64,000 nt of DNA from Dictyostelium discoideum (taxonomy: Eukaryota). Positions 6,999 through 60,114 of this stretch are shown here, piece by piece. Within the stretch, counting starts at the first letter, position 1; each line of letters begins with the position of its first letter. A program made the translations under genes and the position numbers. The DNA lies in contig CM000155.2 of the NCBI GenBank assembly GCA_000004695.1, positions 2,784,001-2,848,000 of the forward strand, written 5' to 3'. The notes below the pieces were generated by a model that had not been told where the DNA came from, made no database searches, and was given only the letters and a program-made list of their open reading frames with translations.

Positions 6999-8200
6999 TT
7001 TTCTTTATTTTTTTTTAATTTTTTTATTTTTTTTATTTTATTTTATTTTTTTTTTTTTTTTTTCATTTTTTTTTTTAAAAAACTTTTAAATTTTTTTTTT
7101 TTTTTTTTTATTTTTAAATTTCATACACTTTCATATAACATTACATATAAAATTTTTTATTAAAGAATTTTTATACTCCTTTCTCAAATAAATTAATATA
7201 AATAATAAATATAAAAAAATGGCAGGTTCAAGACGTGGAGCATCATCAAGATCAGTTTCAAAACCAGCATCAAAACCAACTACAGCATCAAAACCAACAA
7301 CCACATCAGCACCAGCTAAAACAACTCCAGCTGCTACAACCCCAGCTGCCACTACACCAGCTCAACCAGTTGTTGTCCAAGGTCCAGGTATGTTAGCAAC
7401 AATGGGTAGCTCAATGGCTGGTGCTATGGCTGGTAGCGTAGTTGGTCACGCCCTTGTTGGTGGTGTTTCATCACTCTTTGGTGGTTCAGATAACAATAAT
7501 GTCGACACTCAACAACAACAACAACAACAATCAATGATGAGCAATAACCAACAACAAACCGAAAATGCTTGCAACCCATTATACAAATCTTTTATGACTT
7601 GTTTAGAAAAGAACCAAAGCGATATCAATTCATGCCAATGGGTTTACGAATCTTTCTTAGAATGTAAAAAGATTTCTGGTCCAACCTTCTATTAAATCGA
7701 ATAAAAAAAATCAATAATAATAAATATATAATATAATAATACAATCGTCATTTAATGACAAAAAACAAAAAAAAAAAAAAAAAAAAAAATTAAAAAAAAA
7801 AATAACAAAAAAATAGGCGTCAAAATTAAAACCCATTTAAAAAAAAAAAAAAAACTAAAAACAATAGAATCCTTTTTTTTTTAAAAAAAAAAACAATAAA
7901 AAAANCTAAATATTAGTTTTTTATTTATTTAATTATAAGAGAATTAACTCTTACAATTGCATTTCTTTTTTTCTTTCTAAATATATACATTTTTTTTTTT
8001 TTTTTTTAACCTATCAAATAAAATAAATGATTTTACCTATAAAGGAATAAATGACATGAAGAACTAATTGCTAAAGATAAAGTATTATTATTATTATTAT
8101 ATGCTGTTGAAATTGAGCCAATCCTATTTGAATAATCATTTATAGTTAATTTACTATTATTATTATTATTATTATTATTATTTGTATTATTATTATTTGG
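6999..8200. repeat. Arm A of a >=1.2-kb perfect inverted duplication (partner 58393..~59590)
   Basis: The reverse complement of 7000-8200 matches 58393-59590 base for base wherever I compared. The 158-aa CHCH ORF and the 73-aa antisense ORF are identical in both copies. The last 168 nt of the PP2A-B55 CDS are identical. Arm A begins directly at the gap. Confidence 0.85.
7219..7695 (+). CDS. CHCH-domain protein (twin Cx9C; CHCHD2/CHCHD10/Mix17-like), copy A, 158 aa
   Basis: Single exon. It has an Ala/Pro/Thr-rich N-terminus, a Gly/Ala-rich hydrophobic segment, and a C-terminal CNPLYKSFMTC...CQWVYESFLEC twin Cx9C pair. This matches the mitochondrial intermembrane-space CHCHD2/Mix17 architecture. 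Confidence 0.8.
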   Translation: MAGSRRGASSRSVSKPASKPTTASKPTTTSAPAKTTPAATTPAATTPAQPVVVQGPGMLATMGSSMAGAMAGSVVGHALVGGVSSLFGGSDNNNVDTQQQQQQQSMMSNNQQQTENACNPLYKSFMTCLEKNQSDINSCQWVYESFLECKKISGPTFY

Positions 8201-10197
8201 ACTATTATTATTATTATTATTATTATTATTATTATTATTATTATTATTATTATTATTATTATTATTACCATTTAAATTATTACCATTTAAAATATTATTT
8301 ATAAAATCATTATTATTATTATTATTATTATTATTTAAATTATTTAAATTATTAATTTTTGAAAGTGTTGATAATTGTATATTAAAAAAGTTTGAATTAT
8401 AATAAATTTTATTAAAAAAGCTCATTACTTGATCTCTTGAGGGTGAAGAAATTAATTGTTGTTGTTCGAAATAATTATTGATTCTATTTCTTATGGCAGT
8501 AGTTTTCTTTTGATTTTGTTGTCTTAGATGAGATTCTAAAATAAAACTTTCTGAATTGAATGGATTCCAAATTAAACATTTATTATCATAGGATCCAGTT
8601 ATAACCTGATGTTGATTAATGAAATTACATTGAAATTTATTGACAAATGATGATGATTCATGAAAATCATAAAGTTTTTGATTTAGTAATTGTTCATTGT
8701 AAAGATTATAAATTGCCAATGGTCTATTATCCATATTCATATCCCAAATGGATAAAGATTGTAAATTCCTAGATACAACATACCTACCATCCAATGAAAA
8801 TGACATATCAAATATTGAATTCAAATAATCTGCAAATGCTGATTGATTCACTTCCAATGGTTCATAACATCTACTATATGAATGAATTAATGCCGATTCT
8901 CTCATATCACATAATTTCAATGATCCTCTACTTGTTCCATACATTAATAAATTACAATGATTTGGATGAAATTTAGTCACTCTAATAATTTCATTTAATA
9001 ATTGCATACTAGTTGGTTTTAAATCAATTATATCTATTATTATTATTATTATTATTATTATTATTATTATTAATGAAAAAGGTTAGTATATTTTTTATTT
9101 TATCTATATTTATAAATAAACATACTATAACATTCTTGATTTTGATTTAAATCCCAAAGATAAACTCTTAATTCATCAGATGATAGAAATGTATTACCAT
9201 CACTATTTAAACTGATTGAATTTATATTAAATATTTCTTCATGTTCAAATAACCTTTTTAAATCAAATTTGATTCTATATTGATTATATATATTTGAGGT
9301 TGCGCTGCCATTTAAACTTGAATTTATATTATTGGGTGATGTAGTGGTGCTGTTGGTAGTAGTAGTTGTTGTGGTAGTGGTGGTGGTGGTGGTGGTGGTA
9401 ATTGGTGAATTTAAAGAATTTTTTAATGAAGTTAATAGATTTGGTTTCTCGGGATATTGATTTTGTAATAATTGTAATCTCCATAATTTAATTGAACAAA
9501 CACTTGTTGAAAGAAATAATAATGCTAAACTATGATTTTTACACCATTTAATTTGAATCACTTCTGTATCATGTGCTTGATAGAAACATAGTACTCTATA
9601 TGATTTATTATCATCAATATCAATCTTTACAATACTATTATCTTCATCAGTATCTTCATCAGCATCTTCATCATTATAATTATCAGCAACTTCATCTTCA
9701 TCATAATTATAATTATTGTGGCCATTACTATTCCCATTATGAATATTATGACCATTACTACTACTGTTATTACTATTACTATTATTAATATCACCATCAT
9801 CACTACTACCACTGCTACTTTTTGTATCTTCATTGCCACTATCATCTAGTTCCATTTTAAATTGATTGTCATCATCTTGATTGAAACCATTACCATTACT
9901 ATTACCATTTTCAACTTCATTTTCATCAATTGTTTTTCTTTTTGTTCCTATTAATTTATTTCTATGGGCGGTTCCATTCTTTGTGTTATTATTATTAATA
10001 TTTCTACTATTAAAATTATTAACACTATTTTTAAAATGATAGTTGTTATATTTTCTATTATTATTATTGTTAAATTTTGATAATGAGGATGGTTGTAATA
10101 TTTTTAAAACTGCAATTGAACCATTATCATATCCAACTGCTAAATAATCACCATTTGGATGTAATTCTAATGTTGAAATAGTTTGGTGATCATTCAT
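8033..10197 (-). CDS. phr2aB: Protein phosphatase 2A regulatory subunit B (B55/PR55 family), 2 exons, ~690 aa
   Basis: Exon 1 is 9126..10197 (MNDHQTISTLELHPNGDYLAVGYDNGSIAVLKI...NSISLNSDGNTFLSSDELRVYLWDLNQNQECY). The intron 9034..9125 has a GTATGT donor and an ATAG acceptor. Exon 2 is 8033..9033 (NIIDLKPTSMQLLNEIIRVTKFHPNHCNLLMYGTSRGSLKLCDMRESALIHSYSRCYEPLE...GRYVVSRNLQSLSIWDMNMDNRPLAIYNLYNEQLLNQKLYDFHESSSFVNKFQCNFINQHQVITGSYDNKCLIWNP...LAISSSCHLFLYR). B55 signature blocks are recognisable. Long poly-Asn and poly-Thr insertions are present. The 2073 nt are in frame. The gene symbol is a guess from dictyostelid nomenclature. Confidence 0.85.
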
Positions 10198-58897: not shown

Positions 58898-59374
58898 TTA
58901 ATAGAAGGTTGGACCAGAAATCTTTTTACATTCTAAGAAAGATTCGTAAACCCATTGGCATGAATTGATATCGCTTTGGTTCTTTTCTAAACAAGTCATA
59001 AAAGATTTGTATAATGGGTTGCAAGCATTTTCGGTTTGTTGTTGGTTATTGCTCATCATTGATTGTTGTTGTTGTTGTTGTTGAGTGTCGACATTATTGT
59101 TATCTGAACCACCAAAGAGTGATGAAACACCACCAACAAGGGCGTGACCAACTACGCTACCAGCCATAGCACCAGCCATTGAGCTACCCATTGTTGCTAA
59201 CATACCTGGACCTTGGACAACAACTGGTTGAGCTGGTGTAGTGGCAGCTGGGGTTGTAGCAGCTGGAGTTGTTTTAGCTGGTGCTGATGTGGTTGTTGGT
59301 TTTGATGCTGTAGTTGGTTTTGATGCTGGTTTTGAAACTGATCTTGATGATGCTCCACGTCTTGAACCTGCCAT
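58898..59374 (-). CDS. CHCH-domain protein (twin Cx9C), copy B, identical to 7219..7695
   Basis: The 158-aa translation is identical to copy A. Flanking 5' and 3' sequences are also identical. Confidence 0.75.
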   Translation of the reverse strand: MAGSRRGASSRSVSKPASKPTTASKPTTTSAPAKTTPAATTPAATTPAQPVVVQGPGMLATMGSSMAGAMAGSVVGHALVGGVSSLFGGSDNNNVDTQQQQQQQSMMSNNQQQTENACNPLYKSFMTCLEKNQSDINSCQWVYESFLECKKISGPTFY

Positions 59375-60114
59375 TTTTTTATATTTATTATTTATATTAA
59401 TTTATTTGAGAAAGGAGTATAAAAATTCTTTAATAAAAAATTTTATATGTAATGTTATATGAAAGTGTATGAAATTTAAAAATAAAAAAAAAAAAAAAAA
59501 AATTTAAAAGTTTTTTAAAAAAAAAAATGAAAAAAAAAAAAAAAAAATAAAAAAAAATAAAAAAAATAAAAAAATTAAAAAAAAATAAAAAAAAAAAGTT
59601 TTTGGGATAGTAGATTACATGTAATTATTATTTCAACAAAATTCCAATTAAAATTCATATATTTTAGGTGTCATTTGAATTCAACAAATAATTTTAAAAT
59701 TATTTATTTTATTTTTAAATTTTAAAAAAATAAAATAAAATAAAACAAAACAAAATAAAATTAAAAAAAAAAAAAAAAAAAAAAAAAAAAAGTTTATAAA
59801 AAATTAAGAAATAAAATAAAACTTAAATTTTTATTAATAAATTTATTATTTTAAAATTTTTAATAAAAATGATAAATAAGATTTTTAATAAAAATAGAAA
59901 AAAATAAATAAAAATGGAATTTAATTAAAATTAATTTAATTGGGGTGTTTAGAAAAAAAAAAAAAAAAAAAAAAAAAACGAACGAAAATTTTTTTTTTTT
60001 TTTTTTTTTCATTTTTTAAAATTTTCGTCGGTTTTTTGTTTTTATTTATTTATTTTTTTTTTTTTTTCTTTGTTGTTGTGTAATAATAAATAAATTATAA
60101 ATAGAAATATAAAT

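Follow-up and report, generated by a model that had tools for sequence, protein, structure and literature searches.

An apparent inverted duplication on Dictyostelium discoideum chromosome 6 is very probably an artefact of unmerged contig ends and a misplaced contig in the AX4 reference

An inverted repeat and the genes it carries

The stretch of DNA analysed here, which we call the window, is 64,000 nucleotides of chromosome 6 from the Dictyostelium discoideum AX4 reference (GCA_000004695.1, contig CM000155.2, positions 2,784,001 to 2,848,000). It has a G+C content of 23% and contains two inverted copies, or arms, of a 1.2-kb sequence carrying a gene for a CHCH domain protein and the 3' end of a gene for a B55-like regulatory subunit of protein phosphatase 2A (PP2A). 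A repeat finder run over the whole window showed that 6999-8200 (arm A) is the reverse complement of 58393-59594 (arm B) over 1,202 nt, with 99% complementarity and a spacer of 50,192 nt between the arms. This was the sole inverted pair above about 91% among the 25 longest pairs shown, the others being low-complexity matches of 71-91%. An earlier description of this DNA, made without database searches (hereafter the sequence-only reading), had called this a perfect inverted duplication with its second arm at 58393-59590. The inverted repeat and the start of that arm stand, but the repeat is not perfect, as base-by-base comparison of the arms found 13 mismatches and one N, and the similarity reaches 59594, position 59590 being a mismatch paired with 7003.

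Both arms encode an identical 158-amino-acid open reading frame (ORF), at 7219-7695 on the forward strand in arm A and at 58898-59374 on the reverse strand in arm B. The protein has a twin CX9C motif (CNPLYKSFMTC ... CQWVYESFLEC) and is CHCHD2/Mix17-like, with homologues named 'CHCH domain-containing protein'. No D. discoideum AX4 entry was present among these homologues and the exact sequence was absent from the protein collection searched; the gene thus seems to lack an annotation in AX4 despite appearing twice in the assembly. Each arm also contains a 73-amino-acid antisense ORF, which had no family match and is probably spurious, together with the final 168 nt of the B55 coding sequence (8033-8200 in arm A on the reverse strand, 58393-58560 in arm B on the forward strand). 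The whole B55-like gene lies at 8033-10197 on the reverse strand, with two exons encoding a WD40 protein of approximately 690 amino acids which matches PP2A B55-alpha chains in the PDB (E=3e-33). Within the unique flank of arm B lie an Rrp9/U3-55K gene (60115-62244, forward strand), whose product matches 4j0w (E=3e-80), and an archease gene matching PF01951, placed approximately at 62363-63143 on the reverse strand by projection of a gene model from the long-read locus L001 described below; a homologue search with a 74-amino-acid archease exon returned no match. The content that the sequence-only reading had assigned to both arms was thus found in both, and its naming of the B55, CHCH, Rrp9 and archease genes agrees with the database matches and the twin CX9C motif.

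Four gaps of 100 N (6899-6998, 43581-43680, 55152-55251 and 58293-58392) divide the window into five contigs, which we designate W (1-6898), X (6999-43580), Z1 (43681-55151), Z2 (55252-58292) and Y (58393 to the window end); there is also a lone N at 7905. Arm A begins at 6999, directly after the first gap, and arm B begins at 58393, directly after the last, so that each arm is the first 1,202 nt of its contig, X and Y respectively, and on its far side each runs into unique sequence (from 8201 in arm A and from 59595 in arm B), the gap coordinates here confirming what the sequence-only reading had noticed. As the arms are inverted, 6999 pairs with 59594 and 8200 with 58393, so that either terminus of the repeat coincides with the end of a contig in one arm and is read through in the other. 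No second unique flank was seen beyond the repeat at either end: there are two unique flanks and the other two sides are N-gaps, where a genuine duplication would give each copy its own unique flank on both sides, four in all.

Both contigs end in low-complexity sequence, that of X in a 117-nt T-rich intergenic run (6999-7115) and that of Y inside a (TTA)n tract equivalent to 8151-8335, where (TTA)62 encodes a poly-asparagine stretch of B55, and this is why they stopped where they did. The partial B55 sequence in arm B had been regarded, should the duplication be real, as a 3' pseudo-fragment; it is merely the coding sequence cut by the end of contig Y in this tract.

A single-copy locus in a long-read assembly

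For comparison we used assembly GCA_054883475.1, which is labelled 'Dictyostelium discoideum' and has the locus tag ACTFIT, and in particular its gapless 2.22-Mb long-read contig JBTAPE010000034.1, loci of which (L001, aligned by megablast, and others including L002 and L007) were compared with the window. This assembly has a single place that encodes the CHCH protein, on that contig, in the gene order archease (+), Rrp9-like (-), CHCH (+), a 690-amino-acid gene (-) which is B55, and NLPC_P60. Positions 5392-10982 of L001 correspond to the window read backwards from 64000 to 58393 (99.6% identity) and positions 9785-20477 correspond to the window read forwards from 6999 to 17721 (99.5%). These two matches overlap by 1,198 nt of L001, and therefore the arm is present once, linking the unique flank of contig Y directly to the unique flank of contig X. 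The shifted second locus, L007, gave the same single-copy result and extended the collinearity of X to 24158, and collinearity over the whole of X is supported by the spacing between 6999 and 34860, which is 27,861 nt in the window and 27,799 nt in the long-read record.

Further along, JBTAPE010000034.1 contains the sequence of window 34860-43580, then 1,091 nt which are absent from the window, then the window read backwards from 58292 to 55282 and from 54325 to 43741 (position 8681 of L002 corresponding to window 43580 and position 9773 to window 58292). Beyond Z1 it continues with approximately 7 kb absent from the window, which includes a 1,573-amino-acid gene and a non-LTR retrotransposon. 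When flipped, the long-read order is thus Z1, Z2, 1.1 kb, the reverse complement of X, and Y, compared to W, X, Z1, Z2, Y in the scaffold, and a single edit, in which X is removed, reverse-complemented and put into the gap at 58293-58392, reconciles the two from Z1 rightwards. The relocated X then shares 1,202 nt with Y at one end, and its other end stops 1,091 nt short of Z2. Merging the reverse complement of Y with X yields archease, Rrp9, CHCH and an intact B55 gene as one consistent locus; the single-copy order B55-CHCH-Rrp9-archease that the sequence-only reading had reconstructed was correct, as the long-read contig joins these genes directly, with Rrp9 as the true neighbour of CHCH. The neighbour of the gene at 57033, which the sequence-only reading had counted as unknown if the repeat were an artefact, can also now be given: the 1,091 nt missing from the window, followed by the end of contig X at 43580.

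The junction of X with Z1, the gap at 43581-43680, is contradicted by the long-read contig, and it cuts a single-exon gene for a 531-amino-acid, LRR-like, asparagine-rich protein after codon 310. The first 310 codons are at window 42651-43580, with 308 of the 310 residues matching the long-read gene, and the final 221 codons are in the 1,091 nt (L002 8682-9772) seen only in the long-read contig.

The 14 positions at which the arms differ are 7003 and 7040, which are among the first 42 nt of contig X, 11 substitutions within a 25-nt A-rich stretch (7814-7838) and the N at 7905. Across the 7814-7838 cluster arm A has TAGGCGTC...T....C.C...T where arm B has an A-rich run. In a three-way alignment arm B agreed with the long-read contig at all 14, leaving arm A as the odd one out, and the long-read contig differed from both arms only in one homopolymer (T15, compared to T19 in the arms). 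The differences private to arm A look like base-call errors, their pattern resembling that of low-coverage Sanger read ends rather than divergence between paralogues, which suggests that arm B is the accurate copy of the overlap and arm A the lower-quality one.

The window also contains one long direct repeat, and only one, in which 54289-54835 matches 55252-55798 over 547 nt with 98.9% identity. Its first copy is in the tail of contig Z1 and its second starts at the first base of Z2 after the gap at 55152-55251; the long-read contig has this sequence once. This is an unmerged overlap between Z1 and Z2 and hence a second false duplication, although it differs from the case of X and Y in that the two contigs are adjacent and correctly oriented. 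With a second overlap abutting a gap, this part of the reference demonstrably holds unmerged contig overlaps. Both ends of Z1 are also very poor in sequence quality. At its start (43681-44143) the first 60 nt could not be aligned to the long-read contig, and approximately 65 substitutions and 13 indels in the 400 nt that follow create spurious ORFs there, while its last 316 nt (54836-55151) are a degraded second copy of 53842-54187. Near the start of Z2, a tRNA-Met gene (56202-56275) and a tRNA-His gene (56392-56463) adjoin a 226-amino-acid ORF (55313-55993, reverse strand), which had no Pfam match and may be the remnant of a tRNA-targeted retroelement.

How far the long-read assembly can speak for AX4 depends on how closely the two are related. 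The 143 substitutions between the window and the long-read loci were strongly clustered, with clusters at or near contig ends (7003-7905, 43253-43374, 43751-44143, 53989-54322 and 58280-58287) and at a few internal spots, and stretches of 4-6 kb had no substitution at all. The comparator is therefore essentially isogenic with AX4 and most of the differences are local errors. GCA_054883475.1 was also the sole assembly with exact matches to four AX4 proteins, one of them a 105-amino-acid single-exon protein, other D. discoideum isolates carrying variants. Among the ORFs of the window itself, DDB_G0293402, DDB_G0293380 and a beta-lactamase-like protein match AX4 proteins exactly. The comparator strain is probably AX2-214: Nanopore and Illumina assemblies that include this laboratory strain are available under PRJNA1300491 (PMC12745789), and in that study AX2 and AX4 were 99.5% identical in nucleotide sequence and free of rearrangements at another locus, and duplicated sequence was not detected in AX2-214 (PMC12745789). 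The internal spots at which substitutions and indels cluster in the comparison with the long-read contig (11018-11345, 46330-46428, 47973-48037 and 49006-49322), which include indels of 22 nt and 26 nt near 46376-46403, lie in surroundings that are otherwise identical, and they could be local errors in one assembly or variation in the length of simple sequence.

Gene order in related dictyostelids was in agreement with the long-read contig. In D. purpureum the archease (+), Rrp9 (-), CHCH (+) and B55 (-) genes are adjacent and single-copy, with CHCH and B55 tail to tail as they are in the arm (L003 4282-10705), and so the synteny check proposed alongside the sequence-only reading returned the merged single-copy order. 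The tail-to-tail adjacency of CHCH and B55 is kept in T. lacteum (L004 8001-10357) and is absent in C. fasciculata. The synteny with D. purpureum and T. lacteum indicates that the merged arrangement is ancestral within group 4.

Weighing an assembly artefact against genuine rearrangement

We consider it very probable that the inverted duplication is an artefact of assembly and scaffolding, in which a single-copy locus is represented by the unmerged, overlapping ends of two contigs, one of which, X, is both misplaced and inverted. The sequence-only reading had raised this as one of two possibilities, with overlapping contig ends both retained and one contig inverted, and it is now supported by the long-read contig, by the D. 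purpureum order and by the errors private to arm A. The ends of the repeat are contig ends, the merged locus is intact, an independent assembly contains the locus once and free of gaps, and the differences between the arms are error-like, all of which is as an artefact would leave it.

Both arms would then be the same 1.2-kb stretch of chromosome 6, made up of CHCH with its flanks and the B55 3' end, which would have been sequenced at the ends of two contigs of the Sanger-era AX4 reference, each stopping in a low-complexity tract. The 1,202-nt overlap of X and Y would have been left unmerged, and X (36.6 kb, 6999-43580) would then have been inverted in the scaffold and put on the wrong side of Z1-Z2 (43681-58292). 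The correct order of the region would be Z1, Z2, approximately 1.1 kb of unsequenced DNA, the reverse complement of X, and Y, with the reverse complement of X overlapping Y by those 1,202 nt; the gap at 58293-58392, between 58292 and 58393, would be the proper site for both the reverse-complemented X and the 1,091 nt of missing sequence. We infer that AX4 shares the arrangement of the long-read contig. A simple inversion of the intervening segment was rejected as an account of the difference in order, as the orientation of Z1-Z2 to Y is unchanged and X alone has been turned round and moved.

Several points weigh against this interpretation. The arms of a real repeat could also come to lie at contig ends if the assembler breaks contigs where repeats begin or end. 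The evidence on copy number and on the junctions comes from the comparator, which appears to be a different stock from AX4 and whose strain name was deduced rather than read from a record. Real duplications are known from laboratory stocks of D. discoideum, a large inverted one on chromosome 2 of AX4 among them (PMC2643946), and the array comparative genomic hybridisation (array CGH) used to find them resolves only duplications of at least 15 kb (PMC2643946), a size which the 1.2-kb arm is below. Moving X also leaves contig W (1-6898) without an established place.

With regard to contig W, its junction with X in the scaffold, the gap at 6899-6998, is without support from any other assembly. 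In both D. dimigraforme and D. firmibasis (L006 1-5489 and L008 1-4600), FANCI, an enoyl-CoA hydratase gene and a cluster of small hssA-like genes are followed by an importin-beta-like gene, so that the hssA-like cluster adjoins that gene and not CHCH or B55. That W and Z1 become true neighbours once X is removed was considered and found to lack support, as the long-read contig has the 1,573-amino-acid gene and the retrotransposon beyond Z1 (L005 1-7216) and the two sister species have the importin-beta-like gene beyond the hssA-like cluster. Look-ups in the long-read assembly for exact proteins from W and the start of Z1 (a 228-amino-acid enoyl-CoA hydratase ORF, a 463-amino-acid ORF and a 63-amino-acid hssA-like ORF) returned nothing.

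The best-surviving alternative is that the scaffold is right and that a genuine rearrangement took place in the AX4 (AX3/AX4) lineage, in which a 36-kb segment was inverted and transposed, or two nested inversions occurred, with a 1.2-kb breakpoint duplicated. It would account for the arrangement as deposited, real duplications are common in laboratory stocks (PMC2643946), and the comparator is a different stock. All three of the novel junctions that it requires (6899-6998, 43581-43680 and 58293-58392) are N-gaps, however, with no sequence across them, and both ends of the repeat are contig ends with no second flank. A duplication arising on a laboratory time scale should have identical copies, whereas arm A has 13 private, error-like differences and arm B is identical at those positions to the other strain. 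Two inversions, or an inverted transposition, and a duplication would also be needed where one misplaced contig suffices, and the overlap of Z1 and Z2, which also abuts a gap, is evidence that overlaps were left unmerged in this assembly. We therefore regard such a rearrangement as very unlikely, and we give a little less credence again to its narrower form, that the AX4 stock carries a lineage-specific inverted transposition of the 36-kb segment from the B55 gene to the LRR-like gene with a duplicated 1.2-kb breakpoint. The sequence-only reading had allowed for a genuine inverted duplication with two CHCH copies; nothing in the present comparisons gives it positive support, the independent, near-isogenic long-read assembly being single-copy where two copies would have been looked for, and no second unique flank being present at either end.

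That an older inverted duplication exists across D. discoideum and was collapsed to one copy in the long-read assembly is barely credible. Collapsed repeats do occur in assemblies, and the arms differ by approximately 1%, as those of an older duplication might. In the long-read contig, however, the arm has unique sequence on both sides, and these flanks are exactly the two present in the window. After a collapse there should be two further flanks with no place of their own; instead the end of Z2 joins the far end of X. Nanopore reads are much longer than a 1.2-kb repeat, the differences form clusters and occur in one arm only, and D. purpureum is single-copy.

Consequences for the reference and comparison with known systems

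These results describe no new biology, and their value is in the curation of a widely used model-organism reference, here AX4 chromosome 6. The literature was searched for published misassemblies of AX4, with no specific result. If the assembly artefact is accepted, the errors in the reference would be a misplaced and inverted 36.6-kb contig, a false second copy of the CHCH gene and of the 3' end of B55, a 547-nt false duplication and the loss of approximately 1.1 kb, which truncates a gene. The region as it stands could mislead studies of synteny, the design of knock-outs for the CHCHD2-like and B55-like genes, read mapping (through multi-mapping over the arms) and the calling of structural variants. 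Were the AX4 rearrangement real instead, AX4 would have two CHCH genes, a truncated 3' fragment of B55 and inverted arms through which the intervening 50 kb could be flipped, and it would differ structurally from AX2 in a second respect, the first being the duplication on chromosome 2.

Among known systems, the locus most resembles a standard class of assembly error, the false duplication produced by unmerged contig ends and a mis-ordered scaffold. The termini of the repeat are contig ends at N-gaps, merging gives an intact syntenic locus, the sequence is present once in an independent assembly and the differences resemble low-quality read ends. It departs from the typical unmerged overlap in that the contigs are not adjacent but are 50 kb apart and in opposite orientation, and so they mimic an inverted segmental duplication around an invertible block.

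The inverted segmental duplication on chromosome 2 of AX3/AX4 is similar in that the same organism and strain has inverted, near-identical copies in its reference. That duplication, however, covers hundreds of kilobases, is two-copy by array CGH and has been recovered in genome comparisons (PMC2643946, PMC12745789), whereas the arms here are 1.2 kb, have no sequenced junction and are single-copy in a near-isogenic strain. The likeness to inversions mediated by inverted low-copy repeats through non-allelic homologous recombination is in appearance only, with two inverted arms around approximately 50 kb. That model needs two real copies with unique flanks on both sides, and when the window was examined for these only one unique flank per arm was found; the difference in order from the long-read contig is, moreover, unlike that which a simple inversion between the arms would produce.

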